Positions 1,880 through 23,122 are shown, counted from the stretch's first letter. The stretch is 23,122 nt of DNA from a virus (IMGVR_UViG_2690316210_000010:1-23122), one strand, 5' to 3'. Program-made: numbers and translations. The notes: generated from the sequence alone by a model not told the origin.

Positions 1880-2517
1880 GGTGATGCTGCCAACTTACTG
1901 ATTTAGTGTATGATGGTGTTTTTGAGGTGCTCCAGTGGCTTCTGTTTCTATCAGCTGTCCCTCCTGTTCAGCTACTGACGGGGTGGTGCGTAACGGCAAA
2001 AGCACTGCCGGACATCAGCGCTATCTCTGCTCTCACTGCCGTAAAACATGGCAACTGCAGTTCACTTACACCGCTTCTCAACCCGGTACGCACCAGAAAA
2101 TCATTGATATGGCCATGAATGGCGTTGGATGCCGGGCAACTGCACGCATTATGGGCGTTGGCCTCAACACGATTTTACGTCACTTAAAAAACTCAGGCCG
2201 CAGTCGGTAACCTCGCGCATACAGCCGGGCAGTGACGTCATCGTCTGCGCGGAAATGGACGAACAGTGGGGCTATGTCGGGGCTAAATCGCGCCAGCGCT
2301 GGCTGTTTTACGCGTATGACAGTCTCCGGAAGACGGTTGTTGCGCACGTATTCGGTGAACGCACTATGGCGACGCTGGGGCGTCTTATGAGCCTGCTGTC
2401 ACCCTTTGACGTGGTGATATGGATGACGGATGGCTGGCCGCTGTATGAATCCCGCCTGAAGGGAAAGCTGCACGTAATCAGCAAGCGATATACGCAGCGA
2501 ATTGAGCGGCATAACCT
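1880..2517 (+). mobile_element. IS1, 3'-truncated (left inverted repeat through mid-insB)
   Basis: Begins with the IS1 terminal repeat GGTGATGCTGCCAACTTACTGATTTAGTGTATGATGG; insA and insB recognisable; IS1 sequence stops after ...GAGCGGCATAACCT, where IS3-family sequence takes over. Confidence 0.85.
1935..2210 (+). CDS. insA: IS1 InsA
   Basis: 91-aa translation [42 protein letters not shown]... matches IS1 InsA. Confidence 0.9.
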
Positions 2518-2701
2518 TTTAGGACAATGGGTTACCGCCGCCAGAAAAGGGCTCGGTACTCCTGGTTCCCGCACGGTGGCTGAACTGGAATCTGAAATTC
2601 TGCAACTGCGTAAGGCGTTAAATGAAGCTCGCCTTGAGCGAGATATATTAAAAAAAGCAACAGCGTATTTTGCACAGGAGTCGCTGAAAAATACGCGTTA
2701 A
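2129..2701 (+). pseudogene. insB: Chimeric ORF: IS1 InsB (first ~129 aa) fused in frame to the C-terminal ~60 aa of an IS3-family OrfA
   Basis: Translation follows InsB up to ...[14 protein letters not shown], then continues [60 protein letters not shown], a typical IS3-family OrfA C-terminus. Confidence 0.75.
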
Positions 2702-3598
2702 TCGAACAATGGCGACAACAATTTCCCATTGAAGCGATGTGTCAGGTATTTGGTGTATCCAGGAGCGGTTATTACAACTGGGTACAGCATGAACCCTCAG
2801 ACAGAAAACAAAGTGATGAGCGGCTAAAACTGGAGATTAAGGTGGCACATATCCGCACTCGCGAAACATATGGAACCCGGCGGCTCCAGACGGAGCTGGC
2901 AGAGAATGGCATCATCGTTGGTCGTGACCGACTGGCACGTCTTCGTAAGGAGCTAAGGCTACGCTGTAAGCAGAAACGCAAGTTCAGAGCGACTACGAAC
3001 TCGAACCACAATCTGCCAGTTGCGCCAAATCTGCTGAACCAGACGTTCGCTCCTACAGCACCAAATCAGGTCTGGGTGGCGGACCTGACGTATGTTGCCA
3101 CACAGGAGGGATGGTTGTACCTCGCTGGCATCAAAGATGTTTATACGTGCGAAATTGTCGGCTACGCCATGGGAGAGCGCATGACAAAAGAGCTGACAGG
3201 TAAAGCCCTGTTTATGGCGCTCAGGAGCCAGCGCCCACCTGCCGGGCTAATCCACCACTCTGATCGAGGTTCACAGTACTGCGCATACGATTACCGGGTC
3301 ATACAGGAGCAGTCTGGTCTGAAAACATCAATGTCGCGTAAAGGTAACTGTTACGACAACGCTCCGATGGAAAGCTTCTGGGGAACGCTGAAAAATGAGA
3401 GCCTGAGCCACTATCGTTTTAATAACCGGGATGAAGCCATCTCAGTAATACGGGAATACATTGAGATTTTCTACAATCGTCAGCGTCGTCACTCTCGTCT
3501 GGGGAATATCTCCCCGGCAGCCTTCAGGGAAAAATATCATCAGATGGCTGCTTAAAAAAAGAACAAATGGTAGTGTCCGCTATTGCCAGTACACCTCA
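2518..3598 (+). mobile_element. IS3-family element (IS600/IS911-like), 5'-truncated, right end intact
   Basis: OrfA C-terminus, A-run slippery motif near 2647-2656, OrfB in the -1 frame, and a right end ...GTACACCTCA consistent with an IS3-family terminal CA. Exact IS name not verified. Confidence 0.7.
2737..3555 (+). CDS. IS3-family transposase OrfB (DDE catalytic domain); coordinates are the first in-frame ATG, natively expressed by -1 frameshift from OrfA
   Basis: 272-aa translation with DDE-transposase hallmarks (...WVADLTYV..., ...HHSDRGSQYCA..., ...CYDNAPMESFWGTLK...). Confidence 0.8.
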   Translation: MCQVFGVSRSGYYNWVQHEPSDRKQSDERLKLEIKVAHIRTRETYGTRRLQTELAENGIIVGRDRLARLRKELRLRCKQKRKFRATTNSNHNLPVAPNLLNQTFAPTAPNQVWVADLTYVATQEGWLYLAGIKDVYTCEIVGYAMGERMTKELTGKALFMALRSQRPPAGLIHHSDRGSQYCAYDYRVIQEQSGLKTSMSRKGNCYDNAPMESFWGTLKNESLSHYRFNNRDEAISVIREYIEIFYNRQRRHSRLGNISPAAFREKYHQMAA

Positions 3599-3895
3599 AA
3601 GGTGCAGGTGCACTATAATTCCACCCGTTCTGGTTTTCAATAGCTACATTCAACATTTTCTCTTTCCTTTCATCACCGAAGTGAACTTTGTTGATGCGGT
3701 GCCTGGTGCCTCCAGGTGACGTTAACCAGTTAACAATTAACGCCGGATACAGGGAAACCCATAACCACCCGATACGGGGGAACTAATCGCTTTTTAACTG
3801 TGCCGCGTGCGCTGAGCCGCATTCACCGCATCACAAAATTCACTTTAAAAAGGGCGGACATCAGCCAGCAATGAAACTGATGCCGCCAAAGGTAC
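3599..3895. repeat. Direct repeat copy 2 (dicF-dicB intergenic region plus DicF-like gene), abutting the IS3-family right end
   Basis: Aligns with 1513-1810; starts immediately after the IS3-family terminus. Confidence 0.8.
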
Positions 3896-3902
3896 CAATC
3901 AA
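3847..3902 (-). ncRNA. DicF-family sRNA variant (P1)
   Basis: Minus strand reads UUGGUACCUUUGGCGGCAUCAGUUUCAUUGCUGGCUGAUGUCCGCCCUUUUU: DicF-like terminator and U-tail with a divergent 5' region. Ends approximate. Confidence 0.4.
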
Positions 3903-4087
3903 CATGGAGTGTTGTGGCGTGGTTGTCACTTAAGCGTATGGTCAACCTGACAACCCGGTGTCCTCAACGGGGAAGGAATAACTCCGCCATACTTACCGCC
4001 GCGTCATTTCGCGTTGTGTGCCTGCTTTTAACCACGTCAGGCGAGGTGGTATCCTTCTTATCCCGAATAACCAAGAAGGAAATCTAT

Positions 4088-4288
4088 ATGACTAAAGAAG
4101 AATTTGTCTCTTATATTTTTGATAAAACGGTTGAAATGTATGCCGCTACTTACGGGTCCTGTAATCCTCTGAATAAACCAGAGGGAAAAGATGATTTCGA
4201 CAAAATTTACCGCTTCTTGGAGGACCGCTATATCAAAAGCTTAGAGGACGCAGGGATCAAATCCCCAGTGAAGTCACCATTGTCCTGA
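4088..4288 (+). CDS. Hypothetical small protein (66 aa) in the variable cassette, antisense to the dicB operon
   Basis: ATG at 4088 with AAGGA Shine-Dalgarno; 3' end overlaps the convergent gene 4257..4634 by 32 nt; no homolog recognised; P2 has an unrelated gene at the same position. Confidence 0.4.
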   Translation: MTKEEFVSYIFDKTVEMYAATYGSCNPLNKPEGKDDFDKIYRFLEDRYIKSLEDAGIKSPVKSPLS

Positions 4289-4634
4289 GAACTTGCAGAA
4301 CGTCATGATCATAACTTCCATCCAAACCGCGACGGCGAATTGCTTCTCGTATTACCGGAAGCAGTTCGCTGGAAATCTCGGTGCATATTTCACCTGATAA
4401 TACGCTTGGCTCAAGTGAGAATATTGGTGAACTTACGGTCTTGGTCTCGACAGTTTCAGAGTCAGTGCCAACATTATAAAGCTCAACGAAAGCGGTCTTG
4501 ATTTTCCGGGCCAGATCTTTTGCTGGCTCGCTTGCAATATCTTTCCCGATTTCTCGCAGCACAGAATGCAATGTATGAGCTGCTGTTTTCTGTACATCAG
4601 ACGGTAAATCTTTAAATTCCATCGTCAGCCTCAT
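4257..4634 (-). CDS. Hypothetical protein (125 aa), variable-cassette gene translationally coupled to the ydfA-like gene
   Basis: Start ATG overlaps the upstream stop (TGATG); first 11 aa MRLTMEFKDLP are identical to the P2 gene 10374..10787, after which the proteins are unrelated. Confidence 0.5.
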   Translation of the reverse strand: MRLTMEFKDLPSDVQKTAAHTLHSVLREIGKDIASEPAKDLARKIKTAFVELYNVGTDSETVETKTVSSPIFSLEPSVLSGEICTEISSELLPVIREAIRRRGLDGSYDHDVLQVLRTMVTSLGI

Positions 4635-4786
4635 CAGTCAGTGTTTCTGGCTAACCAGCAACGCGCGCCAGATTCGGTTTTAAACGTTTTGCTTTTGGTA
4701 TACGTCATGGCGGTAAACGTTCCATCCTGGTTAGGGAACACGCCGCACACCAGAGATTCGTTGTTGCCAAGATCGATAGTATCCAT
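4634..4786 (-). CDS. YdfA/YdaF-like small protein (~50 aa)
   Basis: MDTIDLGNNESLVCGVFPNQDGTFTAMTYTKSKTFKTE... with GAGG Shine-Dalgarno; first gene after the repressor-side promoter, as ydfA/ydaF in Qin/Rac; near-identical paralog at 10787..10939. Confidence 0.6.
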   Translation of the reverse strand: MDTIDLGNNESLVCGVFPNQDGTFTAMTYTKSKTFKTESGARCWLARNTD

Positions 4787-4966
4787 GCTGACCTCATTTC
4801 CCCTTAACGCCGGGGTGGCGGAACAAAAAACCTGCTGCATAGTTAAAGATTGAACCCTGCCGTCATGTTCTTACGCCTCGGGCTGGCTACTTAACCCCTG
4901 ACCACTGTCTGGTAACTCGAAGTATTGCCCTGCATTCTGTGGGGCGGGGTGGGTTGACGCCTGAAA

Positions 4967-5062: not shown

Positions 5063-5353
5063 TTAACTGTTTTTGCCTGGATACTGTCTTCGAGAATGCA
5101 CAATATTTACTACTTCTATGCTTGATGCTGTTACTCGGTAAAGGATGATGTAGTTAGGATGAGTTACAATTTCACGAAGACCAAGAACTCGCTCGCTTGG
5201 AGGATACAGGTAAGGATGCTCTGTGAGCGGCAAAACGGATGTTTCAATTCGAATTTTCATTCTGCGTGCTGCCGCGGGATTTTCTTTAGCTATGTAGGCT
5301 ACGATCTGGCGCAAATCATCACGAGCAGATGGTAGCCATAAAACGGGTAACAT
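5063..5353 (-). CDS. ParE/RelE-superfamily type II toxin
   Basis: 96-aa translation MLPVLWLPSARDDLRQIVAYIAKENPAAARRMKIRIE...YIILYRVTASSIEVVNIVHSRRQYP fits the ParE pattern; start overlaps the upstream antitoxin stop (TAATG). Confidence 0.7.
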   Translation of the reverse strand: MLPVLWLPSARDDLRQIVAYIAKENPAAARRMKIRIETSVLPLTEHPYLYPPSERVLGLREIVTHPNYIILYRVTASSIEVVNIVHSRRQYPGKNS

Positions 5354-5547
5354 TATTCACCTCTGTGAGTTGCAGCAGCAATTTGGGCAATAATTTGTTC
5401 CATTTCCGCCATTACCTCATCATGCGGAATCGCCGGGCGGGGATCCGCGAGGCTTGCTGCTACTTTGGCCCGCAGCCATTCGTTGTAACTATTTTCTTGC
5501 TCAACTGTCTCAAATTCTGAAACCATTGGGGAAAGGACTGTACTCAT
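5353..5547 (-). CDS. Type II antitoxin (ParD/CC2985-like) paired with the ParE-like toxin
   Basis: 64-aa acidic protein ...YNEWLRAKVAASLADPRPAIPHDEVMAEMEQII...; AGGAG Shine-Dalgarno; translationally coupled upstream of the toxin. Confidence 0.55.
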   Translation of the reverse strand: MSTVLSPMVSEFETVEQENSYNEWLRAKVAASLADPRPAIPHDEVMAEMEQIIAQIAAATHRGE

Positions 5548-5566
5548 TTTACATATCTCCTCTGAT

Positions 5567-6067
5567 TTAGGCGCGACGGCCTTTTTGTGCAGCTAACCAC
5601 CGCGCAACCGTACGATCCATTGATTCTTTTTTATCTTTCATCTCCTGAAGCATGTGTTCTTGATCTTCTTTCGGAAAAGCTCTGAACGTATGGATTAAAT
5701 CTCGTTCCATCGGCTCTACGGCAAACGGTAGTTCATCCTCTGTTTGTTCTGTGTCTGCTGGTAATGCGACTATGTTATCTTGCTGTGGTTCTCGACAATA
5801 CATCCTTGCAATTTGCAGCAAATCTACCATGTCTGGCCTGATTGACTCAGGGGGAACTTTCAGTAAGCCAGCAAACTTTAGTACAGCCTCAAGGTTTAGT
5901 GGGGTTTGACCATTTAGGTAGTGACTTACCGCCCCTTGTGTTGAAAACCCCATAATTTCCGCCGCACGTTCCTGAGTCAATCCCAACTGAGATTTCTTTG
6001 CCATCCAGATTTCTTTCAGTCTTCTGGCGGCGTTGAGGTCGGTGTCTGACAATGATTTTCTTTTCAT
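5567..6067 (-). CDS. CI-like HTH repressor without a recognisable S24 peptidase domain
   Basis: Start chosen at MKRKSLSDTDLNAARRLKEIWMAKKSQLGLTQERAAEIMGF..., which resembles the lambda CI N-terminal domain; the C-terminus shows no Ser/Lys peptidase motif; divergent from the Cro-like gene. Confidence 0.7.
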   Translation of the reverse strand: MKRKSLSDTDLNAARRLKEIWMAKKSQLGLTQERAAEIMGFSTQGAVSHYLNGQTPLNLEAVLKFAGLLKVPPESIRPDMVDLLQIARMYCREPQQDNIVALPADTEQTEDELPFAVEPMERDLIHTFRAFPKEDQEHMLQEMKDKKESMDRTVARWLAAQKGRRA

Positions 6068-6080
6068 ACATCCAATTCTA

Positions 6081-6146
6081 ATAAGATTGCTAATCACTTT
6101 GAAATAGCATCACTATTTACTTTTAAAAATAACAGTGCTATTAATT
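6081..6146. promoter_or_regulatory. OR-like operator/promoter region between the divergent repressor and Cro-like genes (P1)
   Basis: Operator repeats AATAGCATCACTATT (6103-6117) and AATAACAGTGCTATT (6129-6143); candidate rightward promoter -35 TTTACT (6116-6121), 17-bp spacer, -10 TATTAA (6139-6144). Confidence 0.45.
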
Positions 6147-6178
6147 ATGCATTGGTAACACATCACATAGGGCGGATT

Positions 6179-6442
6179 ATGAATCTTGGAGAATATTTGC
6201 ATCATTTTCATATAACCCAGAGTTCATTTGCTGAGATTGTTGGCGCATCCCAAGGGATGGTCAGCCACGTTATAACGGGGCGTGCAAAACTTACAGGAGA
6301 AAAAATATTACGTTGGTGTGAAGCAACGGGATGGGTGGTGACCCCACATGAGATTGACAGTAAAACCTACCCCAACCCAACTGACGGCTTGCCTGCTGAG
6401 TTTCAGGCTAACACACAACCATCGGCGGGGGTTGATTCATGA
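6179..6442 (+). CDS. Cro/YdaS-like HTH regulator
   Basis: MNLGEYLHHFHITQSSFAEIVGASQGMVSHVITGRAKLTGEKILRWCEATGW...; divergent from the repressor; stop overlaps the next gene start. Confidence 0.6.
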   Translation: MNLGEYLHHFHITQSSFAEIVGASQGMVSHVITGRAKLTGEKILRWCEATGWVVTPHEIDSKTYPNPTDGLPAEFQANTQPSAGVDS

Positions 6443-6864
6443 AAATCAAGCATGAACACATCCGCATGGCGATGAAAGCCTGGGCGCATCCGGACGGTGA
6501 AAAAGTTCCGGCAGCTGAAATAACCAGGGTTTATTTCGAACTGGGAATGACGTTTCCGGTTCTGCATAACGACAGCAAGCACAACACGCTTTATCTCAAC
6601 ACCCAAAAGATTTTCCGTTGGCTGGATAAAGACACCCCTGACGCTGTTGAAAAAATTCAGGCGTTGTTACCTGCGATCGAAAGGGCAATGCCACCTCCGC
6701 TGGTGGCTCGAATGCGCAGCCACAGTTCAGCTTATTTTCGGGAACTGGTGGAGACGCATGAACGACTGGTGAGAGACGCTGATGATTTTGTCGCAGTGGC
6801 AATCGCCGGTTTCAATCAGATGAACCGTGGTGGCCCGGCAGGAAATGCTGTGGCAGTACATTGA
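6439..6864 (+). CDS. YdaT-like protein (141 aa)
   Basis: MKIKHEHIRMAMKAWAHPDGEK...; position after the Cro/YdaS-like gene and length match Rac YdaT; paralog at 11990..12415. Confidence 0.6.
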   Translation: MKIKHEHIRMAMKAWAHPDGEKVPAAEITRVYFELGMTFPVLHNDSKHNTLYLNTQKIFRWLDKDTPDAVEKIQALLPAIERAMPPPLVARMRSHSSAYFRELVETHERLVRDADDFVAVAIAGFNQMNRGGPAGNAVAVH

Positions 6865-7982: not shown

Positions 7983-8729
7983 ATGAAAAACATTGCGGCA
8001 GCCGGGGTTCTTGAACGTATTCACAGACTTGCACCACAGGGGGCGGTTCCACCGTACCGGACGGTGGAGGAGTGGCGGGAATGGCAACTTGCTGAAGGAC
8101 GAAAACGCAGCGAGGAGATTAACCGCCAGAATCGCCAGTTGCGGGTGGAAAAAATCCTGAATCGTTCGGGCATCCAGCCTCTGCACAGCAAATGCTCGTT
8201 TGCGAATTATCAGGTGCAGAACGACGGGCAAAAATACGCGCTGAGCCAGGCCAAATCCATAGCTGACGAACTGATGACCGGGTGCACGAATTTTGTGTTC
8301 AGCGGTAAAACCGGCACCGGGAAAAATCACCTTGCAGCGGCGATGGGTAACTGGCTGATGGCGAAGGGGCGCAGCGTGATTATCGTCACCGTGTCTGATG
8401 TCATGAGCGTGTTGCATGACAGCTACGACAACGGCAAATCCGGTGAAAAATTTTTACAGGAGCTTTGCGGGGTTGATTTGCTGGTCCTGGATGAAATAGG
8501 CATTCAGCGGGAGACGAAAAACGAGCAGGTGGTATTGCACCAGATAATTGATCGCCGGACAGCATCACTGTGCAGTGTCGGGATGTTAACAAACCTGAAT
8601 CATGCCGCAATGAGTACGCTTCTTGGTGAGAGGATTATGGACCGCATGACCATGAACGGTGGTCGATGGGTGACGTTTAACTGGGATAGCTGGCGTTCAA
8701 ATGTCAGCTTTCCGGGAGTTGTGAAGTAA
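7983..8729 (+). CDS. DnaC-like AAA+ helicase loader (YdaV-like, 248 aa)
   Basis: Walker A FSGKTGTGKNHLAAAMG and Walker B DLLVLDEIG; about 97% identical at protein level to 13407..14153. Confidence 0.8.
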   Translation: MKNIAAAGVLERIHRLAPQGAVPPYRTVEEWREWQLAEGRKRSEEINRQNRQLRVEKILNRSGIQPLHSKCSFANYQVQNDGQKYALSQAKSIADELMTGCTNFVFSGKTGTGKNHLAAAMGNWLMAKGRSVIIVTVSDVMSVLHDSYDNGKSGEKFLQELCGVDLLVLDEIGIQRETKNEQVVLHQIIDRRTASLCSVGMLTNLNHAAMSTLLGERIMDRMTMNGGRWVTFNWDSWRSNVSFPGVVK

Positions 8730-9095
8730 TTTTTGTTGAACCATGACAGCGTTCTGTACTTCAGGGGCCAGCTTGTCAAAAGTGACGTTCATCGGATCTG
8801 ATTCAGTCTCAACCGGGACAAAGGAAGCAGACTCCTCATCCCAGCGGTTTTCCTGCATATATTCAGCATCCCAGGAATCGAGGGCAGGGCGGGGTATACC
8901 GGGTTTATCCTCGCAAACAAGAAATTTATAAGCGCAGTCCTGAGCTGCAGGGAATTGCTCCAGAAATTGCCAATGAAATTTTGCGCGTGCGCGACGCTCA
9001 TCACCGGCTTCAATGGCAGTGGCCACCGCAACAGCGCTATCTTCTTTTATGGCCTGTTCATCAGGAATAGCAGCGCAAATAAAGACCTTACTCAT
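8697..9095 (-). CDS. Prophage early-left-operon hypothetical protein (132 aa), possibly YdfE-like by position; 3' end overlaps the P1 DnaC-like gene
   Basis: Minus-strand ORF MSKVFICAAIPDEQAIKEDSAVAVATAIEAGDERRARAKFHWQFLEQFPAAQD...; last ~11 codons lie antisense inside the DnaC-like 3' end, so the C-terminus may be junction-derived. Confidence 0.5.
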   Translation of the reverse strand: MSKVFICAAIPDEQAIKEDSAVAVATAIEAGDERRARAKFHWQFLEQFPAAQDCAYKFLVCEDKPGIPRPALDSWDAEYMQENRWDEESASFVPVETESDPMNVTFDKLAPEVQNAVMVQQKLLHNSRKADI

Positions 9096-9190
9096 TTTGT
9101 TTTAACCTCATTACAGATTTCAGGGTGAACGAATCCCTGCCATTGCTGGCATTTTTAATCCGTTGGTATGGTGTTAATATGGCTGGAAGG

Positions 9191-9379
9191 TTATCCAGCC
9201 GGTGTTTCGTTATTCAGGTACAGCGATACTTTTTTTAGCGGGAGGCATTCACCAGAAATTTTTTGCTCGTCTCTTGCCTGGAGGCAGGATTCTTTACTTG
9301 CATAAATTCCGGTAATCACATTCTGTGATTCACCCGTTATAAGAAAAACCGTCATCATCAGTGCAAATGCTGAAGTCAT
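9191..9379 (-). CDS. Small membrane protein downstream of dicB (YdfD-like)
   Basis: MTSAFALMMTVFLITGESQNVITGIYASKESCLQARDEQKISGECLP...; start overlaps the dicB-like stop (ATGA); paralog of 329..520. Confidence 0.5.
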   Translation of the reverse strand: MTSAFALMMTVFLITGESQNVITGIYASKESCLQARDEQKISGECLPLKKVSLYLNNETPAG

Positions 9380-9564
9380 TGACGTTCTCCGAAAATACCA
9401 AGTTCAAGAAGAGCAATTCGGGAAAGTATGGAATTATCATTGAGCAGATAAGGCTCATATTTCCTCATATTAATGGCATCTTCAGTAAACTCCCGGTTAC
9501 TGAGCAGAACACCAATATCAAAACAACCTTCAGACGTATTAACGTTTGGTAATAACGTTTCCAT
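9376..9564 (-). CDS. dicB: DicB-like cell division inhibitor with a divergent C-terminal half
   Basis: N-terminal 35 aa METLLPNVNTSEGCFDIGVLLSNREFTEDAINMRK resemble DicB; the C-terminal half differs from the P0 copy. Confidence 0.65.
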   Translation of the reverse strand: METLLPNVNTSEGCFDIGVLLSNREFTEDAINMRKYEPYLLNDNSILSRIALLELGIFGERQ

Positions 9565-9742: not shown

Positions 9743-9800
9743 AAAAAGGGCGGCAGAGCAGTCACGGAGTAAAACTGATACCGCCAAATGTCACCAGAAA
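9743..9800 (-). ncRNA. dicF: DicF sRNA (canonical-type)
   Basis: Minus strand reads UUUCUGGUGACAUUUGGCGGUAUCAGUUUUACUCCGUGACUGCUCUGCCGCCCUUUUU, matching my recollection of E. coli DicF apart from about one base; located between the ydfA-like/variable genes and dicB as in Qin. Confidence 0.8.
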
Positions 9801-10135
9801 ATTGATAACAGAGGGCGTTGTAGCGGGGTTGTCACTTAAGCGTATGGTCAACCTGACAACCCGGTGCATTTTCTGGAGCAATGGAGGAAACCCCAGCCAT
9901 ACTTACCGCCGCGCCATTTCGCGGAGTGCCACAACCGGAAGCGCACGGTCGAACTAAATTTAACGACACCGTACAGAGAGACCAATTTCGCCGTGCGCTT
10001 TCGCGTTATGCCCTGACTTTTCAGGGACATATCCTTTCAGTAAGCTGTCAGTGCCGGATGCTCACCCGTGTCCGGCGCACGCACTCCACCTGACCCGTGG
10101 AGAACTCCTTAATTACCAACCCTCAGGAGGGTGAA

Positions 10136-10414
10136 ATGGATAAAAAGCAAATTGAGGCCCTGCAATCTATTATTGAAGAACAAGATGAAGCTATCAGGAT
10201 TCTTTCATATCGCACTGATATGATACTAAATATGCTTTCTGCATTAACGGCTGCGCTTGGTGGTACAAAAACAAACGTATACCGCGAAGTTGTTATTCAA
10301 CAGATAGATAAATTTGAAAAAACCATACCAGGTATTAATGCTCATCTTGCAGAACAAGAGAAAGACCATGCTCTTATGGCAATTTCTTCAGTAGCTCTCC
10401 CGAAAGTTGAGTAG
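10136..10414 (+). CDS. Hypothetical protein (92 aa) in the P2 variable cassette, antisense to the dicB operon
   Basis: ATG 10136 with AGGAGG Shine-Dalgarno; MDKKQIEALQSIIEEQDEAIRILSYRTD...; unrelated to the P1 gene at 4088..4288; 3' end overlaps the convergent gene by 41 nt. Confidence 0.4.
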   Translation: MDKKQIEALQSIIEEQDEAIRILSYRTDMILNMLSALTAALGGTKTNVYREVVIQQIDKFEKTIPGINAHLAEQEKDHALMAISSVALPKVE

Positions 10415-10787
10415 TTTTAATTGTTGTTTTGAAATAATCACTGCTTTCACATTTGAGTGATTTCATGGCAATCCAAATGCGGGCCTCTGTGCCTGCATTT
10501 GGTTCCAGTTGCTGTAGACGTTTTGCGTCTTCCAAAAGTAAGGCGATAATGTGTTTCAGCTTCTCATCATTTGCTTGATTCTTGTTTTCAGGCGAATTCT
10601 GTCCGCCGAATAGGCGCTTCTCTTCATACAGACCTATAAAGGCACGACGCACGTTACCGGATATAGTATCGATGGTTTCCTTTTCTACGGTACTCAGGTC
10701 AAGAGTCGCCAGTTGAGAGCGAACCACATTCGATGCCATTTCCTGGAATGGTACTGGTAAATCTTTAAATTCCATCGTCAACCTCAT
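10374..10787 (-). CDS. Hypothetical protein (137 aa), P2 variable-cassette gene coupled to the ydfA-like gene
   Basis: Shares only MRLTMEFKDLP with the P1 gene 4257..4634, then diverges completely; start overlaps the upstream stop. Confidence 0.5.
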   Translation of the reverse strand: MRLTMEFKDLPVPFQEMASNVVRSQLATLDLSTVEKETIDTISGNVRRAFIGLYEEKRLFGGQNSPENKNQANDEKLKHIIALLLEDAKRLQQLEPNAGTEARIWIAMKSLKCESSDYFKTTIKTTQLSGELLKKLP

Positions 10788-10939
10788 CAGTCAGTGTTTC
10801 TGGTTAACCAGCGACGCGCGCCAGCTTCAGTTTTAAACGTTTTGCTTCTGGTATACGTCATCGCGGTGAACGTACCGTCCTGGTTGGGGAACACGCCACA
10901 TACCAGAGATTCGCTGTTGCCAAGATCGATAGTATCCAT
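10787..10939 (-). CDS. YdfA/YdaF-like small protein
   Basis: MDTIDLGNSESLVCGVFPNQDGTFTAMTYTRSKTFKTEAGARRWLTRNTD; near-identical to 4634..4786. Confidence 0.6.
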   Translation of the reverse strand: MDTIDLGNSESLVCGVFPNQDGTFTAMTYTRSKTFKTEAGARRWLTRNTD

Positions 10940-11124
10940 GCTGACCTCATTTCCCCTTAACGCCGGGGTAGCGGAACAAAAACCTGCTGCATAGTTATTA
11001 AAGTTGAACCCTGCCGTCATGTTCTTACGCCTCGGGCTGGCTACTTAACCCCTGACCACTGCCTGGTAACTCGAAGTATTGCCCTGCATTCTGTGGGGCG
11101 GGGTGGGTTGGTATGAAAAGAAGG

Positions 11125-15539: not shown

Positions 15540-16226
15540 ATGACCCCAATAAAAATATTTATGACTATTGCTGATTTCAAACGGCCTAAATTGGAGCTCC
15601 CAAACGGGGCAAACAAACTACTACTGCACTCTTGCTGTGCTCCATGTTCCGGTGAAGTGATGGAGGCGCTTCAGGCCTCGGGAATCGACTACACCATCTT
15701 TTTCTACAACCCGAACATTCATCCTCAGAAAGAGTATTTAATTCGTAAGGATGAAAATATTCGCTTTGCTGAACAACACGGCGTGCCGTTTATCGATGCT
15801 GATTACGACACCGACAACTGGTTTGAACGTGCCAAAGGAATGGAATGGGAGCCTGAGAGGGGGATCCGTTGTACCATGTGTTTTGACATGCGTTTTGAGC
15901 GGACAGCGTTGTACGCTGCTGAAAATGGTTTCAGTGTGATCAGCAGTTCACTGGGCATTTCACGCTGGAAAAATATGCAGCAGGTTAACGACTGTGGGCG
16001 GCGAGCCGTCGCGCATTATCCGGGCATGGTGTACTGGGATTATAACTGGCGCAAGCAGGGCGGCTCGTCCCGTATGATTGAAATCAGCAAGCGCGAAAAA
16101 TTCTATCAGCAGGAATATTGTGGCTGTGTGTATTCTCTGCGCGATACCAATCTACACCGCAAATCTCAGGGACGCCCTCTTATCAAAATTGGTCAACTCC
16201 ACTACGGTAAAGAAGAGAAGGAGTGA
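15540..16226 (+). CDS. QueH-like protein (DUF208, epoxyqueuosine reductase family)
   Basis: N-terminal [11 protein letters not shown] motif plus further conserved Cys/His/Asp residues resemble DUF208/QueH; no obvious Shine-Dalgarno, so start is uncertain. Confidence 0.55.
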
Positions 16227-16453
16227 TTTTATGGGGCACCTTTCTGATTGATTTCATATTGGCGAGGTAAGTAGAATGACTGCGGGTGCTTGAGGCTATC
16301 TGCTTCAGGCATGAACACCAAAAGGCAGATAGAGAAAAGCCCCAGTTAACATTACGCGTCCGGCAAGACGCTTAACATTAATCTGAGGCCAATTTCATGC
16401 TTTGCACATGTAGGTTAGCCTCTTACATGCCGAAAGGCAAGGAGAAGCAGGCT

Positions 16454-16609
16454 ATGAAGCAGCAAAAGGCGATGTTAATCGCCCTGATCGTCATCTGTTT
16501 AACCGTCATAGTGACGGCACTGGTAACGAGGAAAGACCTCTGTGAGGTACGAATCCGAACCGGCCAGACGGAGGTCGCTGTCTTCGTAGACTACGAATCC
16601 AGGAAGTAA
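16454..16609 (+). CDS. hokD: Hok-family type I toxin (HokD/RelF-like); overlapping upstream Mok-like frame begins at 16397
   Basis: MKQQKAMLIALIVICLTVIVTALVTRKDLCEVRIRTGQTEVAVF... matches Hok/RelF; GGAG Shine-Dalgarno. Confidence 0.75.
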   Translation: MKQQKAMLIALIVICLTVIVTALVTRKDLCEVRIRTGQTEVAVFVDYESRK

Positions 16610-17146: not shown

Positions 17147-17184
17147 ACTCCTGCTGTGTAACACCGTGCCACCGGAGAAAGCCG

Positions 17185-17784
17185 ATGGCACATATACAAC
17201 TGGTCAAACAAACCTCTTCCGGATTACTTCTCCCGGCGACGCCGGAGAGTTGCGATTTTCTGCATCAAATCAAAATAGGTGAGTGGATACACGCAGACTT
17301 TAAGCGTGTGTGTAACTACGCATTCCACAAGCGTTTTTTCAAACTCCTGCAACTGGGTTTCGATTACTGGACTCCGGTCGGTGGGGCGATCACGCCTCGC
17401 GAACGAAAACTGGTGTCCGGTTTCGTTGATTACCTGTGTGAATCAGTAGGCCGGGAACATACGCCAGCTCTGAGCGAAGCCGCAGAGCAATATCTGAATA
17501 CAGTTGCGACACGCAGAACCAGTGATACGGCATTGCTAAAGTCGTTTGAGGCTTTCCGCGAGTGGGTAGCCATTCAGGCCGGATTTTACACCGAGCATTT
17601 TTATCCGGACGGTAGCCGTGGGTGTCGGGCGAAATCTATCGCGTTTGCGAATATGGACGAAACCGAGTTTCAGCAGGTTTATAAATCTGTTCTGAATGTG
17701 CTGTGGAACTGGATTCTGTTCCGTAAATTTTCCTCTCCGGAACAAGTCGAAAATGTGGCCGCGCAGCTGCTGGAGTTTGCGTAA
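17185..17784 (+). CDS. DUF1367-like prophage protein, tandem copy A
   Basis: GGAG Shine-Dalgarno; MAHIQLVKQTSSGLLLPATPESCDFLHQIK...; stop overlaps the next gene start (TAATG). Family assignment from memory. Confidence 0.55.
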   Translation: MAHIQLVKQTSSGLLLPATPESCDFLHQIKIGEWIHADFKRVCNYAFHKRFFKLLQLGFDYWTPVGGAITPRERKLVSGFVDYLCESVGREHTPALSEAAEQYLNTVATRRTSDTALLKSFEAFREWVAIQAGFYTEHFYPDGSRGCRAKSIAFANMDETEFQQVYKSVLNVLWNWILFRKFSSPEQVENVAAQLLEFA

Positions 17785-18074
17785 TGGTGGATTTACGTAA
17801 AGCGGCGCGGGGGCAGATGTGCACCGTCAGAATTCCTGGCTACTGCAATCACGATCCGGAAACGTCTGTGCTGGCGCATTACCGACTGGCGGGAACGTGC
17901 GGAACAGCGATAAAGCCACACGATATGCAGGCAGCGATTGCCTGTAGCTCGTGCCACGATTTAATCGACGGGCGGGTAAAAACCAGCGATTACACCAAAG
18001 AAGAATTACGCCTGATGCATGCAGAAGGTGTTTTTCGCACACAAGAAATCTGGAGAAAGGAGGGATATTTATGA
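17784..18074 (+). CDS. YbcO-like (DUF1364) zinc-binding protein, copy A
   Basis: 96 aa with four paired Cys (C..C...C..C) and position before Q as in DLP12 ybcO; identical in copies B and C. Confidence 0.55.
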
Positions 18075-18448
18075 TTTACCCAACGAATACAGGAAAAAGC
18101 GGAGAACACCTTCGTCTCACCACGCTGGAAAGTGTCTGGATTCAGGGAAAACTACGTATGTGGGGGCGCTGGTCGTATATTGGTGGCGGTAAGACGGGGA
18201 ATATGTTTAACCTGATGTTGACCTCTAAAAAGCTGACAAAAACGGCAATTAACGAGGCGCTCCGGAGGATGAAAAAAGCAGGTCTGAACAAGTCTGAACT
18301 TGCTGCCGCCATGAAGCAGATTAAAGAACTCCAGCGCCTGCTCGGCAAGAAAACGATGGAAAATGAACTCCTCAAAGAAGCCGTTGAATATGGACGGGCA
18401 AAAAAGTGGATAGCGCACGCGCCCTTATTGCCCGGGGATGGGGAGTAA
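18071..18448 (+). pseudogene. Truncated Q-like antiterminator (first ~74 aa) fused in frame to the C-terminal part of IS2 InsC
   Basis: [16 protein letters not shown]...NKSEL, then [48 protein letters not shown] (IS2 InsC C-terminus); junction at the shared 10-mer TCTGAACTTG (18293-18302). Confidence 0.75.
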
Positions 18449-19322
18449 GCTTAGTCAGCCGTTGTCTCCGGGTGTCGCGTGCGCAGTTGCACGTCATTCT
18501 CAGACGAACCGATGACTGGATGGATGGCCGCCGCAGTCGTCACACTGATGATACGGATGTGCTTCTCCGTATACACCATGTTATCGGAGAGCTGCCCACG
18601 TATGGTTATCGTCGGGTATGGGCGCTGCTTCGCAGACAGGCAGAACTTGATGGTATGCCTGCGATCAATGCCAAACGTGTTTACCGGATCATGCGCCAGA
18701 ATGCGCTGTTGCTTGAGCGAAAACCTGCTGTACCGCCATCGAAACGGGCACATACAGGCAGAGTGGCCGTGAAAGAAAGCAATCAGCGATGGTGCTCTGA
18801 CGGGTTCGAGTTCTGCTGTGATAACGGAGAGAGACTGCGTGTCACGTTCGCGCTGGACTGCTGTGATCGTGAGGCACTGCACTGGGCGGTGACTACCGGC
18901 GGCTTCAACAGTGAAACAGTACAGGACGTCATGCTGGGAGCGGTGGAACGCCGCTTCGGCAACGATCTTCCGTCGTCTCCAGTGGAGTGGCTGACGGATA
19001 ATGGTTCATGCTACCGGGCTAATGAAACACGCCAGTTCGCCCGGATGTTGGGACTTGAACCGAAGAACACGGCGGTGCGGAGTCCGGAGAGTAACGGAAT
19101 AGCAGAGAGCTTCGTGAAAACGATAAAGCGTGACTACATCAGTATCATGCCCAAACCAGACGGGTTAACGGCAGCAAAGAACCTTGCAGAGGCGTTCGAG
19201 CATTATAACGAATGGCATCCGCATAGTGCGCTGGGTTATCGCTCGCCACGGGAATATCTGCGGCAGCGGGCTTGTAATGGGTTAAGTGATAACAGATGTC
19301 TGGAAATATAGGGGCAAATCCA
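18293..19322 (+). mobile_element. IS2, 5'-truncated (mid-insC to right end ...GGGGCAAATCCA)
   Basis: insC 3' part, insD and the right terminus are recognisable; the left ~300 bp of IS2 is absent. Confidence 0.85.
18406..19311 (+). CDS. insD: IS2 transposase InsD (natively expressed as an InsCD frameshift product)
   Basis: 301-aa translation ...[32 protein letters not shown]... with DDE motifs. Confidence 0.85.
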
Positions 19323-19364
19323 ACGGGCTGAACACCCATTCTACTGCGCCAGCGGAGAACTACG

Positions 19365-19964
19365 ATGGCGCATATACAACTGATCAAACAAACCTCTTCC
19401 GGATTACTTCTCCCGGCGACGCCGGAGAGTTGCGATTTTCTGCATCAAATCAAAATAGGTGAGTGGATACACGCAGACTTTAAGCGTGTGTGTAACTACG
19501 CATTCCACAAGCGTTTTTTCAAACTCCTGCAACTGGGATTCGATTACTGGACTCCGGTCGGTGGGGCGATCACGCCTCGCGAACGAGAACTGCTGTCTGG
19601 TTTCGTTGATTACCTGTGCGAATCAGTAGGTCGGGAACATACGCCAGCTCTGAGCGAAGCCGCAGAGCAATATCTGAATACAGTTGCGACACGCAGAACC
19701 AGTGATACGGCATTGCTAAAGTCGTTTGAGGCTTTCCGCGAGTGGGTAGCCATTCAGGCCGGATTTTACACCGAGCATTTTTATCCGGACGGTAGCCGTG
19801 GGTGTCGGGCGAAATCTATCGCGTTTGCGAATATGGACGAAACCGAGTTTCAGCAGGTTTATAAATCTGTTCTGAATGTGCTGTGGAACTGGATTCTGTT
19901 CCGTAAATTTTCCTCTCCGGAACAAGTCGAAAATGTGGCCGCGCAGCTGCTGGAGTTTGCGTAA
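19365..19964 (+). CDS. DUF1367-like prophage protein, copy B (mosaic of A-type and C-type sequence)
   Basis: About 99% identical to copy A, but carries C-type substitutions at the 5' end (LIKQ, RERELLSGF). Confidence 0.55.
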   Translation: MAHIQLIKQTSSGLLLPATPESCDFLHQIKIGEWIHADFKRVCNYAFHKRFFKLLQLGFDYWTPVGGAITPRERELLSGFVDYLCESVGREHTPALSEAAEQYLNTVATRRTSDTALLKSFEAFREWVAIQAGFYTEHFYPDGSRGCRAKSIAFANMDETEFQQVYKSVLNVLWNWILFRKFSSPEQVENVAAQLLEFA

Positions 19965-20254
19965 TGGTGGATTTACGTAAAGCGGCGCGGGGGCAGATGT
20001 GCACCGTCAGAATTCCTGGCTACTGCAATCACGATCCGGAAACGTCTGTGCTGGCGCATTACCGACTGGCGGGAACGTGCGGAACAGCGATAAAGCCACA
20101 CGATATGCAGGCAGCGATTGCCTGTAGCTCGTGCCACGATTTAATCGACGGGCGGGTAAAAACCAGCGATTACACCAAAGAAGAATTACGCCTGATGCAT
20201 GCAGAAGGTGTTTTTCGCACACAAGAAATCTGGAGAAAGGAGGGATATTTATGA
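19964..20254 (+). CDS. YbcO-like (DUF1364) protein, copy B
   Basis: Identical translation to copies A and C. Confidence 0.55.
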
Positions 20255-21492
20255 TTTACCCAACGAATACAGGAAAAAGCGGAGAACACCTTCGTCTCAC
20301 CACGCTGGAAAGTGTCTGGATTCAGGGAAAACTACGTATGTGGGGGCGCTGGTCGTATATTGGTGGCGGTAAGACGGGGAATATGTTTAACCTGATGTTG
20401 ACCTCTAAAAAGCTGACAAAAACGGCAATTAACGAGGCGCTCCGGAGGATGAAAAAAGCAGGTCTGAACAAGTCTGAACTTGCTGCCGCCATGAAGCAGA
20501 TTAAAGAACTCCAGCGCCTGCTCGGCAAGAAAACGATGGAAAATGAACTCCTCAAAGAAGCCGTTGAATATGGACGGGCAAAAAAGTGGATAAACGCACG
20601 CGCCCTTATTGCCCGGGGATGGGGAGTAAGCTTAGTCAGCCGTTGTCTCCGGGTGTCGCGTGCGCAGTTGCACGTCATTCTCAGACGAACCGATGACTGG
20701 ATGGATGGCCGCCGCAGTCGTCACACTGATGATACGGATGTGCTTCTCCGTATACACCATGTTATCGGAGAGCTGCCCACGTATGGTTATCGTCGGGTAT
20801 GGGCGCTGCTTCGCAGACAGGCAGAACTTGATGGTATGCCTGCGATCAATGCCAAACGTGTTTACCGGATCATGCGCCAGAATGCGCTGTTGCTTGAGCG
20901 AAAACCTGCTGTACCGCCATCGAAACGGGCACATACAGGCAGAGTGGCCGTGAAAGAAAGCAATCAGCGATGGTGCTCTGACGGGTTCGAGTTCTGCTGT
21001 GATAACGGAGAGAGACTGCGTGTCACGTTCGCGCTGGACTGCTGTGATCGTGAGGCACTGCACTGGGCGGTGACTACCGGCGGCTTCAACAGTGAAACAG
21101 TACAGGACGTCATGCTGGGAGCGGTGGAACGCCGCTTCGGCAACGATCTTCCGTCGTCTCCAGTGGAGTGGCTGACGGATAATGGTTCATGCTACCGGGC
21201 TAATGAAACACGCCAGTTCGCCCGGATGTTGGGACTTGAACCGAAGAACACGGCGGTGCGGAGTCCGGAGAGTAACGGAATAGCAGAGAGCTTCGTGAAA
21301 ACGATAAAGCGTGACTACATCAGTATCATGCCCAAACCAGACGGGTTAACGGCAGCAAAGAACCTTGCAGAGGCGTTCGAGCATTATAACGAATGGCATC
21401 CGCATAGTGCGCTGGGTTATCGCTCGCCACGGGAATATCTGCGGCAGCGGGCTTGTAATGGGTTAAGTGATAACAGATGTCTGGAAATATAG
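20251..21492 (+). pseudogene. Q N-terminal fragment fused in frame to IS2 InsC C-terminus and InsD (single 413-aa chimeric ORF)
   Basis: Same Q::IS2 junction as copy A (20473-20482), plus one extra nucleotide near 20593 (TGGATAAACGCACG versus TGGATAGCGCACG in copy A) that merges the InsC and InsD frames. Confidence 0.7.
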
Positions 21493-21503
21493 GGGCAAAT
21501 CCA
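20473..21503 (+). mobile_element. IS2, 5'-truncated, second copy
   Basis: Same structure and right end as 18293..19322. Confidence 0.85.
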
Positions 21504-21545
21504 ACGGGCTGAACACCCATTCTACTGCGCCAGCGGAGAACTACG

Positions 21546-22145
21546 ATGGCGCATATACAACTGATCAAACAAACCTCTTCCGGATTACTTCTCCCGGCGA
21601 CGCCGGAGAGTTGCGATTTTCTGCATCAAATCAAAACAGGTGAGTGGATACACGCAGACTTTAAGCGTGTGCGTAACTACGCATTCCACAAGCGTTTTTT
21701 CAAACTCCTGCAACTGGGATTCGATTACTGGACTCCGGTCGGTGGGGCGATCACGCCTCGCGAACGAGAACTGCTGTCTGGTTTCGTTGATTACCTGTGC
21801 GAATCAGTAGGTCGGGAACATACGCCAGCTCTGAGCGAAGCCGCAGAGCAATATCTGAATACAGTTGCGACACGCAGAACCCGGGATACGGCATTGCTAA
21901 AGTCGTTTGAGGCTTTTCGCGAGTGGGTAACCATTCAGGCTGGATTTTACACCGAACATTTTTATCCGGACGGTAGCCGCGGGCGTCGGGCAAAATCCAT
22001 CGCTTTTGCGAATATGGACGAAACCGAGTTTCAGCAGGTTTATAAATCTGTTCTGAATGTGCTGTGGAACTGGATTCTGTTCCGTAAATTTTCCTCTCCG
22101 GAACAAGTCGAAAATGTGGCCGCGCAGCTGCTGGAGTTTGCGTAA
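21546..22145 (+). CDS. DUF1367-like prophage protein, copy C (most diverged)
   Basis: Several substitutions relative to A and B (KTGEW, RVRNY, TRDTALL, WVTIQ, RGRRAKS). Confidence 0.55.
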   Translation: MAHIQLIKQTSSGLLLPATPESCDFLHQIKTGEWIHADFKRVRNYAFHKRFFKLLQLGFDYWTPVGGAITPRERELLSGFVDYLCESVGREHTPALSEAAEQYLNTVATRRTRDTALLKSFEAFREWVTIQAGFYTEHFYPDGSRGRRAKSIAFANMDETEFQQVYKSVLNVLWNWILFRKFSSPEQVENVAAQLLEFA

Positions 22146-22435
22146 TGGTGGATTTACGTAAAGCGGCGCGGGGGCAGATGTGCACCGTCAGAATTCCTGG
22201 CTACTGCAATCACGATCCGGAAACGTCTGTGCTGGCGCATTACCGACTGGCGGGAACGTGCGGAACAGCGATAAAGCCACACGATATGCAGGCAGCGATT
22301 GCCTGTAGCTCGTGCCACGATTTAATCGACGGGCGGGTAAAAACCAGCGATTACACCAAAGAAGAATTACGCCTGATGCATGCAGAAGGTGTTTTTCGCA
22401 CACAAGAAATCTGGAGAAAGGAGGGATATTTATGA
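22145..22435 (+). CDS. YbcO-like (DUF1364) protein, copy C
   Basis: Identical translation to copies A and B. Confidence 0.55.
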   Translation: MVDLRKAARGQMCTVRIPGYCNHDPETSVLAHYRLAGTCGTAIKPHDMQAAIACSSCHDLIDGRVKTSDYTKEELRLMHAEGVFRTQEIWRKEGYL

Positions 22436-22986: not shown

Positions 22987-23062
22987 CGTAAAAACTGCTT
23001 CAATTCTTGTACGCTTCGCAAAGCTGTACCGCGAGGCGAATAGCAGACATGGACATTTGAAA

Positions 23063-23088
23063 GAGCCCGCTTTATGCGGGTTTTTTTA
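23063..23088 (+). terminator. Rho-independent terminator downstream of Q (candidate tR'-like terminator of the late leader transcript)
   Basis: Hairpin CCCGC-TTTAT-GCGGG followed by TTTTTTT. Confidence 0.6.
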
Positions 23089-23122
23089 TACCTGAAAAAC
23101 GGCACAGGACGTTAAACGTGCT

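Follow-up and report, generated by a model that had tools for sequence, protein, structure and literature searches.

A convergent pair of small genes at a recombinational cargo site of lambdoid prophages, with a leader homologous to DNA upstream of the sieB promoter

Lambdoid prophages of the Qin/Rac/CP-933P kind have a recombinational cargo site in their early-left (dicBF-type) operon, and the stretch between the DUF1391 gene and the dicF precursor described here represents one allele of it. This allele carries two genuine protein-coding genes, one encoding a 66-aa protein on the strand opposite to the operon and one encoding a 125-aa operon-sense protein. The 66-aa gene, its leader of ~70 nt and the opposite-strand sequence for the C-terminal domain (C-domain) of the 125-aa protein form one co-inherited unit of ~400 bp. 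Judged by sequence homology as well as by position, the plus-strand slot is the locus that holds sieB in P22, lambda and Rac.

The window (the whole 23,122-nt stretch of viral DNA that was analysed) contains two adjoining early regions of Qin/Rac/CP-933P-type lambdoid prophages, here called P1 and P2, and its immunity layout agrees with that of CP-933P (PMC8630535). The P1 site comprises the following features:

3852-3900, minus strand: P1 variant DicF-like small RNA with altered 5' seed (GAUUGGU-ACCUUUGGCGG), below the Rfam DicF gathering score
3921-3955: inverted repeat GGTTGTCA (3921-3928)...TGACAACC (3948-3955), the left anchor, upstream of dicF; 91% identity to P2 9825-9869
3957-4012: remnant of the conserved untranslated leader between cargo and inverted repeat; junction of an 82-bp deletion at 4012/4013
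4014-4049, plus strand: sieB-type upstream control block (TTGTGTGCCTGCTTTTAACCACGTCAGGCGAGGTGG), homologous to P22 and lambda
4047-4080, plus strand: candidate extended -10 TGGTATCCT (4047-4055, a putative promoter element) and 8-bp hairpin
4088-4288, plus strand: 66-aa ORF, Shine-Dalgarno AAGAAGGA
4257-4634, minus strand: 125-aa operon-sense ORF; RefSeq relatives begin at MEFKDLP, 4622
4257-4400, minus strand: C-terminal helical-hairpin domain of the sense protein (residues ~79-125); last 11 codons dual-coded
4401-4466, minus strand: linker of the sense protein, predicted to be disordered, weakly constrained (dN/dS 0.86)
4467-4634, minus strand: N-terminal MEFKDLP module of the sense protein, right-hand recombination anchor, with PHROG matches
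4634-4840, minus strand: DUF1391 (YdfA/YdaF-like) gene, the right anchor; Pfam PF07151, E 3e-28; 94% DNA identity to P2

From the left, P1 thus runs through IS elements, a truncated gene at the dicB position, the dicF-like allele, the inverted repeat, the short leader and the 66-aa ORF, and continues rightward with the 125-aa ORF, the DUF1391 gene (the first conserved operon gene), parE2/paaA2/paaR2 (5063-6097, minus strand) and ydaS-/ydaT-like genes. The convergent pair that the first-pass annotation had placed at 4088-4288 and 4257-4634, with overlapping 3' ends, is borne out; the 3' overlap amounts to 32 nt, and the 125-aa ORF in turn overlaps the stop codon of the DUF1391 (ydfA-like) gene by one base (TGATG). 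The P2 counterpart has the same geometry with a 3' overlap of 41 nt, and its frame also includes ydfD and dicB before dicF:

9748-9799: P2 dicF
9828-11020: whole P2 site, with the inverted repeat at 9828-9862 followed by the conserved leader
10136-10414, plus strand: P2 plus gene (92 aa)
10374-10787, minus strand: P2 minus gene (137 aa)
10787-11020, minus strand: P2 DUF1391 gene

The flanks of the two copies, which had been described as conserved, are so on both sides (84-94% identity): the DNA identity between P1 and P2 is 94% over 4642-4900, 84% over 4597-4641 and 91% over 3919-3963, whereas over 4028-4596 it falls to 40-51%, the forced-alignment level for unrelated DNA. The left anchor is, however, longer than the inverted repeat to which it had been confined, as homology to P2 and to E. 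coli relatives runs through 3957-4012 and then meets an 82-bp deletion between TTTCGYG repeats, which is confined to S. sonnei-type copies. This dicF-side leader is conserved in all cassette types, including that of K-12 with ydfBC and no antisense gene, and its indels are not multiples of three. An ORF of PHROG 8854 within it (P2 9848-10030), considered as a third gene, is probably spurious, the region being conserved as DNA with out-of-frame indels.

The dicF assigned to the P1 side is indeed DicF-like, but it is a divergent allele that scores 38.8 bits (E 1e-6) against a gathering score of 48 for Rfam RF00039, whereas the P2 dicF reaches 77 bits. Its structure is kept, its seed is altered, and a terminator-like hairpin with a T-run follows (3884-3857); the same allele is found in 7 other loci. 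The small RNA svsR, a prophage RNA limiting phage infection, was ruled out as the identity of this variant because its place is the 3' end of cI. The window almost certainly derives from Shigella sonnei: database entries identical to the 66-aa and 125-aa proteins come from S. sonnei (for the 125-aa protein, from hundreds of contigs). The best complete E. coli genomes are ~95% identical to the window copy across the P1 stretch, and the P2 cassette has 100% identical copies in E. coli.

The site as a whole was surveyed in 80 IMG/VR loci encoding a close DUF1391 relative, of which 68 have the dicF inverted repeat downstream. In these 68 loci the anchors enclose at least 16 kinds of cassette that are unrelated to one another and measure 200-2063 bp, the P1 type being the commonest (19 loci), and the cassette diversity that the first-pass annotation had expected of a cargo-exchange hotspot in the early-left operon is thereby found. 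Among 5426 complete E. coli genomes, the anchors are present in ~4450 (~80-82%), usually more than once (~11,800 places altogether), with the P1 cassette in 385 genomes and the P2 cassette in 124. Most cassette types, P2 included, open with a protein that combines the MEFKDLP module with a variable C-terminal part, and many have a gene on the opposite strand. The opposite-strand cargo proteins are:

66-aa protein
92/91-aa family
68-aa protein, PHROG 4987
148-aa protein with two hydrophobic segments, PHROG 6315
~165-aa coiled-coil and zinc-ribbon protein, PHROG 1244

The 148-aa protein with its two transmembrane segments was considered as a relative of SieB and gave no alignment. Every cargo protein found at the site is unannotated: scans of all four P1 and P2 proteins and of six other cargo proteins against Pfam, PHROGs, NCBIfam and PADLOC returned only PHROG families without a function, the other cargo proteins giving either no match or marginal, sub-threshold matches (E 0.01-0.03) in PADLOC.

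The exchanged unit is not the simple two-gene cassette that had been proposed. The sense and antisense modules recombine partly independently (a 124-aa sense protein occurs either alone or together with the 148-aa gene), and the P1 sense protein is itself a two-module fusion. The ydfB-ydfC genes of K-12 represent one allele of the site, without an antisense gene, and two further clusters (11 and 13) combine ydfBC with both a MEFKDLP gene and an antisense gene. The K-12 Qin order ydfA-ydfB-ydfC-dicF-dicB-ydfD resembles that of the window in having a DUF1391 gene, variable small genes, a long untranslated leader with the inverted repeat, dicF, and dicB/ydfD, within a dicBF operon that is repressor-controlled (PMC10448788). 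It differs in that ydfB and ydfC both lie on the operon strand with no antisense gene, and YdfB and YdfC are unrelated to the P1 proteins. Variation of the genes upstream of dicF was noted earlier, in the legend to Fig. 9 of PMC5069750. In the literature searched, no paper ties the ydfA-dicF cassettes to the sieB locus and none describes the P1 pair; sieB itself is a classic gene, and what appears to be new is that the leader of the P1 66-aa gene is homologous, in its DNA sequence, to what directly precedes the sieB promoter of P22 and lambda.

The 66-aa protein is a member of PHROG 34441, a family without an assigned function, and has homologues at 88%, 71%, 57% and 54% identity, its frame being kept at 54-71% identity across genera. 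Measured against the homologues of 57-88% identity, its gene has a dN/dS of 0.05-0.23 with synonymous change saturated. Codons 1-16 differ almost only synonymously, which argues that translation starts at the annotated ATG. The only internal methionine (codon 17) is replaced by T, I, V or L in homologues, and no conserved internal in-frame start of the kind that would give an Esc-like product is found among them. The protein is acidic and soluble (maximum KD19 0.31, pI 5.0), and its AF2 model is a two-helix hairpin (pLDDT 82). For the sense gene, the dN/dS is ~0.5 overall, with 0.36 for the N-module, 0.86 for the linker and 0.47 for the C-domain; between the C-domains of P1 and of a Cedecea copy, pS is 0.84 and pN 0.24.

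The 66-aa family is tiny. Word-indexed searches, with the single sequence and with a profile, find relatives only in prophage copies of Enterobacteriaceae, and an exhaustive HMM search of 1.84 billion proteins adds a single 73-aa relative; scanning viral and metagenome collections gave no match for the latter, which was located by exact look-up (locus L153). Among species-representative genomes, only four near-identical loci are present. That neither P1 protein could be recognised, as the first-pass annotation had stated, holds after profile and structure searches, which put no name on either, and RefSeq calls both 'hypothetical protein'. The 66-aa protein has no match in Pfam, NCBIfam, PADLOC or PDB sequence profiles, and a Foldseek search of its model against PDB and BFVD gave nothing below E ~1; PDB sequence profiles likewise gave nothing for the P1 proteins, neither of which matches PADLOC-DB 2.0 at E <= 1 or contains a Pfam or NCBIfam toxin or antitoxin domain. 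BLASTP comparisons of the P1 proteins with YdfB, YdfC, DicB, YdfD, YdaG and KilR (for YdfB and YdfC, no alignment at E <= 10) and with SieB of lambda and Rac, N, Ral, Ea10, CIII and Kil were empty, and a literature search by RefSeq accession found nothing. The proposal of a defence or exclusion function thus receives no support from PADLOC, Pfam, NCBIfam, PDB or fold searches.

The 125-aa sense protein joins two parts of different distribution. Residues 5-59 match PHROGs 9419, 1363, 2151 and 6937 (E 5e-15 to 3e-7), and the first ~54 residues of the P1 and P2 minus-strand proteins are homologous (37% identity, E 8e-9) and share the same four PHROGs. The earlier description of the P1 and P2 pairs as completely unrelated therefore needs to be restricted to the plus-strand proteins and to the C-terminal halves of the minus-strand proteins, for which it is correct. 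For the 125-aa protein AF2 gave a poor model (pLDDT 53), with two hairpins and a disordered linker at low confidence (residues 56-84 below pLDDT 50), and this model was of too low a quality to be used.

Unlike the N-module, which is shared among cassettes, the C-domain goes with the 66-aa gene. In every one of the 61 loci that have a full 66-aa gene, it is encoded antisense and downstream of that gene and overlaps it to the same extent, and the two are present together in at least four different prophage backbones, some of which have neither the DUF1391 gene nor the inverted repeat. In locus L004 the C-domain homologue (36% identity, E 1e-7) is attached to a different N-terminal part, and in L004 and L152 the pair is the nearest feature on the left side of an S24 repressor. 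The L007 group provides a further independent backbone. In the Cedecea copy (L005) the C-domain (61% identity, E 2e-22) stands alone, and the unit lies between cro and a cII-like gene. In L153 the distant 73-aa homologue converges with the first small gene of a pL-like operon, with a 35-nt overlap; the 63-aa product of that gene was considered as a relative of the C-domain, and the similarity is not significant (E 0.22). The ~400-bp unit is always antisense to an early operon beside the immunity switch. As the C-domain is kept with the 66-aa gene across backbones, the P1 sense protein is best described as a generic N-module fused to a domain that is linked to the antisense gene, although the co-inheritance could in part reflect tight physical linkage.

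The 66-aa gene has the position of sieB. In lambda, sieB (34482-35036, plus strand) abuts N (35037-35438, minus strand); in Rac, sieB has 4 nt in common with ydaF, a DUF1391 gene; and in P22, where P_sieB and esc are annotated, sieB converges on gene 24. Like these genes, the 66-aa gene runs antisense to the early-left operon and converges on the gene or genes that open it (N in lambda, ydaF in Rac, gene 24 in P22), and the first-pass reading of the site as one where lambdoid phages carry exclusion functions is supported. The reading is extended by the leader, in which ~35 nt of upstream control DNA are homologous to P22 and lambda. An exact 18-mer, CTTTTAACCACGTCAGGC (4025-4042), is common to P22 (L156 1587-1604), where it lies just upstream of the annotated P_sieB; no chance match of 18 nt is expected in the window. 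Over the block at 4014-4049, local matches of 27-37 nt have 89-96% identity to P22 and lambda, with Rac looser. Owing to a 1-nt indel, the 33-nt sieB block escaped a pattern search that allowed no gaps, and the 18-mer search succeeded. In P22 the counterpart of the block makes up the 3' part of sas, an RNA antisense to sieB (PMC13397905). The homology of the leader to DNA upstream of P_sieB places the plus-strand gene in the sieB locus, where it has taken the place of sieB.

Several other cargo genes keep the sieB-type block, followed by a consensus extended -10, TGTATAAT, at the position of the P22 P_sieB -10. In P1, unlike P22, the equivalent sequence, AAATCTATATGACT, contains the start codon of the 66-aa gene, and the spacer has a 5-nt insertion. 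With the ATG on the -10 position, the sieB promoter itself cannot drive the 66-aa gene, and transcription would have to come from further upstream. No site upstream of the 66-aa gene passes a scan for consensus sigma-70 promoters; TGGTATCCT is the only candidate -10, and it too is rejected by the consensus scan. In the same stretch, UCCUUCUU (4052-4059) can pair with the Shine-Dalgarno AAGAAGGA (4073-4080) in the 8-bp hairpin (RNA fold z = -2.25). Three diverged copies (L004, L007 and L001) retain this hairpin, and in one position a C-G pair has become U-A by compensatory change. The P2 leader is of a different type. As far as the leader hairpin is concerned, the arrangement is analogous to the 'fold-back inhibition' of IS10 and IS50, in which the ribosome-binding site is paired, within a hairpin, with a segment upstream of it. 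If transcription started inside the 5' arm of the hairpin, only transcripts entering from outside would be silenced.

Taken together, these features suggest a model that we consider quite possible, if short of probable: the 66-aa gene would be cargo that has replaced sieB and that has a cognate partner domain encoded by the early-left operon, most likely with a role in phage-phage or phage-host conflict (exclusion or abortive infection). The dicBF-type operon is repressor-controlled and bistable (PMC10448788, PMC8630535). While it is repressed, the 66-aa protein, like the product of sieB, would be made from a start site of its own. Upon derepression, convergent transcription across the 66-aa gene, together with the 32-nt overlap of the mRNAs, would shut the 66-aa gene down, and the operon would at the same time yield the partner domain, which may bind or neutralise the 66-aa protein in a manner analogous to the action of Esc and sas on SieB. 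In this way the prophage would be spared the effect of the protein that it encodes. The model draws on the substitution patterns that mark both genes as real, the 61/61 co-inheritance, the independent backbones, the hotspot, the sieB position, the homology of the control region, the repressor control of the operon and the presence of the P1 cassette in a functional phage. Against it stand the lack of similarity to SieB or to any defence family, a soluble and acidic protein in place of a basic membrane protein, the lack of a consensus sigma-70 promoter with the ATG on the P_sieB -10 position, the poor AF2 model of the 125-aa protein, the possible effect of linkage on co-inheritance, the L153 partner, which is not detectably homologous to the C-domain, and the IS1 insertions in the 66-aa gene of some Shigella-type copies.

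A stronger form of the model, which we regard as unlikely, would make the 66-aa protein and the opposite-strand C-terminal hairpin a two-component, strand-switched exclusion system. The effector would be produced in the lysogen from the sieB-derived control region and the antidote only when the early-left operon fires, with convergent transcription enforcing the either/or.

Comparison with sieB itself brings out both the likeness and the limits of the model. SieB is expressed from the prophage (PMC10883804, PMC13397905). The phage escapes its own SieB by means of a cognate factor, Esc, and an antisense RNA from the operon strand, a mechanism reportedly worked out by Ranade and Poteete in 1993. 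SieB proteins are basic membrane proteins of 162-192 aa with a maximum KD19 of 1.73-2.19 and a pI of 9.3-9.9, whereas the 66-aa protein is a predicted soluble helical hairpin at 0.31 and 5.0; it matches only PHROG 34441, whereas Rac SieB belongs to PHROG 6399, and BLASTP against lambda and Rac SieB gives no alignment. The antidote proposed for P1 differs from Esc in being encoded by the opposite strand, where it forms one domain of a protein from the operon. A broader likeness is to the moron and self-immunity genes of prophages, such as lambda rexAB and BstA/aba of Salmonella BTP1, which are accessory genes beside the repressor with a linked element that spares the resident phage. The P1 gene is likewise an accessory gene beside the immunity region, and its expression would be independent of the lytic operons; no homology to such genes was found (PADLOC empty).

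Several other explanations account for parts of the same evidence. The one that comes closest, possible though on the unlikely side, is that the two proteins are accessory factors of the usual early-lytic kind, which inhibit host proteins or host defences and happen to be encoded at a mosaic junction, the orientation having no regulatory meaning and no logic of exclusion or self-immunity being involved. Inhibitors encoded by phages are typically small, acidic, soluble and helical, the region is mosaic in general, no consensus promoter of the gene's own was found, and the neighbouring DicB and DicF act on host targets (PMC6832061, PMC5069750). The orientation antisense to the early operon is, however, kept in five different contexts and the sieB-type control block is retained, and a gene antisense to a strong early operon would be poorly expressed in lytic growth. 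At the other extreme, the suggestion that the ORFs are chance open frames in a non-coding spacer would fit their short length, the lack of a family annotation and the RefSeq name of both, but it is effectively refuted by the substitution analyses, with dN/dS well below 1 and frames kept across genera at 54-71% identity, as well as by the good Shine-Dalgarno and the pLDDT of 82.

We consider it improbable that the genes form a toxin-antidote (addiction-like) pair that stabilises the prophage and does not exclude phages. The strict co-inheritance of two small partners would suit such a pair, as would the predicted overlap of convergent transcripts, known from some antisense-controlled toxin systems, and the predicted sequestration of the ribosome-binding site by the leader hairpin; such prophages also have further toxin-antitoxin modules nearby, here paaA2-parE2 (5063-5547) and hok/sok (16284-16609). 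Neither protein matches any toxin or antitoxin family, however, and the genes are convergent, unlike the co-directional bicistron of type II systems. The 66-aa protein has no hydrophobic segment of the kind found in type I toxins, although overlapping transcripts are plausible from the gene arrangement. Moreover, IS1 disrupts the 66-aa gene alone in some strains with the partner region kept, which argues against an essential antidote. Equally doubtful is a function at the level of RNA, in which plus-strand transcription would act as a roadblock or antisense brake on read-through into the toxic dicF/dicB, the peptide being secondary. What the operon encodes is toxic and controlled at several levels (PMC10448788), a plus-strand transcript would be complementary to the operon mRNA along its full length, and cassettes that lack an antisense gene still have the conserved leader; yet purifying selection on the 66-aa amino-acid sequence is strong, with synonymous change saturated, and the 66-aa protein is kept in backbones that have neither dicF nor the inverted repeat.

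Returning to the model of sieB replacement, the first-pass observations are partly confirmed, holding largely and with the corrections given above, and the interpretation is partly supported. The link to the sieB locus by sequence gives a concrete reason to screen the small cargo genes for superinfection exclusion or abortive infection, and the DUF1391 gene, the MEFKDLP module, the sieB-type block and the dicF inverted repeat offer anchors for mining. If the strand-switched arrangement were true, the ydfA-dicF site would be a catalogue of at least six further uncharacterised replacements of sieB, among them the 92/91-aa family, the 68-aa protein, the 148-aa protein with two transmembrane segments and the ~165-aa coiled-coil protein with a zinc ribbon. 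The pairing of the two domains, if true, would represent a protein-antidote version of the SieB/Esc logic of self-immunity; if false, the site would still show clearly how the shuffling of modules can join small phage proteins in ORFs with two domains.

We note that the copy in the window belongs to an IS-eroded, decaying prophage of S. sonnei with a deletion in its leader, and it may no longer function. In some Shigella-type copies the 66-aa gene is interrupted by IS1, so that the gene is dispensable there, and the IS erosion, the leader deletion and the IS1 insertion in sister contigs make function in the window genome doubtful. The P1 cassette is also carried by a functional sequenced phage, mEp460_ev081.

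The sieB-type block (window 4014-4049, plus strand), which is homologous to DNA upstream of P_sieB in P22 and lambda, also precedes other antisense cargo genes at the variable site between the DUF1391/ydfA-like gene and the dicF inverted repeat. In four viral loci (L044, L074, L082 and L045), the cargo behind the block comprises a 148-aa two-TM protein, with a short ORF of 48-52 aa ahead of its gene, and zinc-ribbon proteins of ~165 aa. The leaders of L044, L074 and L082 additionally contain a consensus extended -10 (TGTATAAT), whereas L045 carries TGT-TAAT in its place. In Rac of E. coli K-12, the annotated sRNA KilS (locus L008, 1906-2003, minus strand) is encoded on the strand of the operon, in the interval from kilR to the sieB start, a position near that of sas in P22.

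The start of the sieB-type block is the exact end of an 82-bp deletion (junction at window 4012/4013) in the leader, a conserved, untranslated stretch ahead of dicF, as judged against the second of the two juxtaposed early regions, P2 (window 9925-10006), and against the E. coli locus L001. The deletion is bounded by short TTTCGYG repeats, and was observed only in S. sonnei-type copies, i.e., the window, L094, L150 and L151. The P2 leader, which separates the cargo from the dicF inverted repeat, contains two mutually overlapping ORFs:

Window 9848-10030, minus strand: 60-aa ORF, PHROG 8854.
Window 9881-10093, plus strand: 70-aa ORF.

As genes, both are disfavoured, because the DNA of this leader is conserved across every cassette type and its indel lengths are not divisible by three; the region is probably part of a dicF precursor or control region. 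The dicF copy of the first early region, P1, is a distinct allele:

Window 3852-3900, minus strand: P1 dicF (Rfam 38.8 bits, below the gathering score).

In its single-stranded 5' seed, GAUUGGU-ACCUUUGG takes the place of UUCUGGUGACAUUUGG, and its loop also differs from that of canonical DicF. Its mRNA targets may be unlike those of the canonical RNA. Among the fetched loci, the P1-type allele recurs in seven others, with different cargo.

In three related Shigella-like contigs (L149, L150 and L151), IS1 is found within the 66-aa gene, the plus-strand cargo ORF of P1 (window 4088-4288), 3' of codon 15-17 (locus positions ~3045-3060 and 2001-2010). Those hosts can therefore do without the 66-aa gene.

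The replication genes of P1 continue directly into ydfD/dicB of P2 (window 8697-9564), with no integrase or exonuclease arm in between; this makes the two early regions a fused or nested arrangement, not two complete, separate prophages. No family match was obtained for the 132-aa ORF at window 8697-9095 (minus strand). The window's left edge carries an immI-like control region of the phage P1/P7 type (716-1570 and 1331-1519, both minus strand), in which matches to C4 antisense RNA and isrK fall across the 5' part of an antirepressor-like ORF of the Rha/Ash family; IS1 and IS3-family elements come next, at 1900-3600. Two modules separate the DUF1391 gene from the replication genes:

Window 5063-6097, minus strand: paaR2-paaA2-parE2 three-component toxin-antitoxin module.
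Window 6152-6864, plus strand: ydaS/ydaT switch.

Prophage CP-933P of E. coli O157:H7 has both, like the window. E. coli relatives carrying the same P1 cassette (e.g., L001) are without the toxin-antitoxin pair. Three further features are as follows:

Window 15540-16226: QueH-like gene, immediately upstream of the hok/sok-type module.
Window 16284-16609, plus strand: hok/sok-type module inside the P2 prophage, with sok RNA scoring 117 bits.
Window 16397-16609, plus strand: Hok/Gef-family ORF of that module.

The right end of the window (17163-23100) is occupied by three tandem copies, 95-100% identical, of a ~2181-bp unit that contains a DUF1367 gene, a YbcO-like nuclease gene and a DUF1133 gene, the last of which is broken by an IS3-family transposase.
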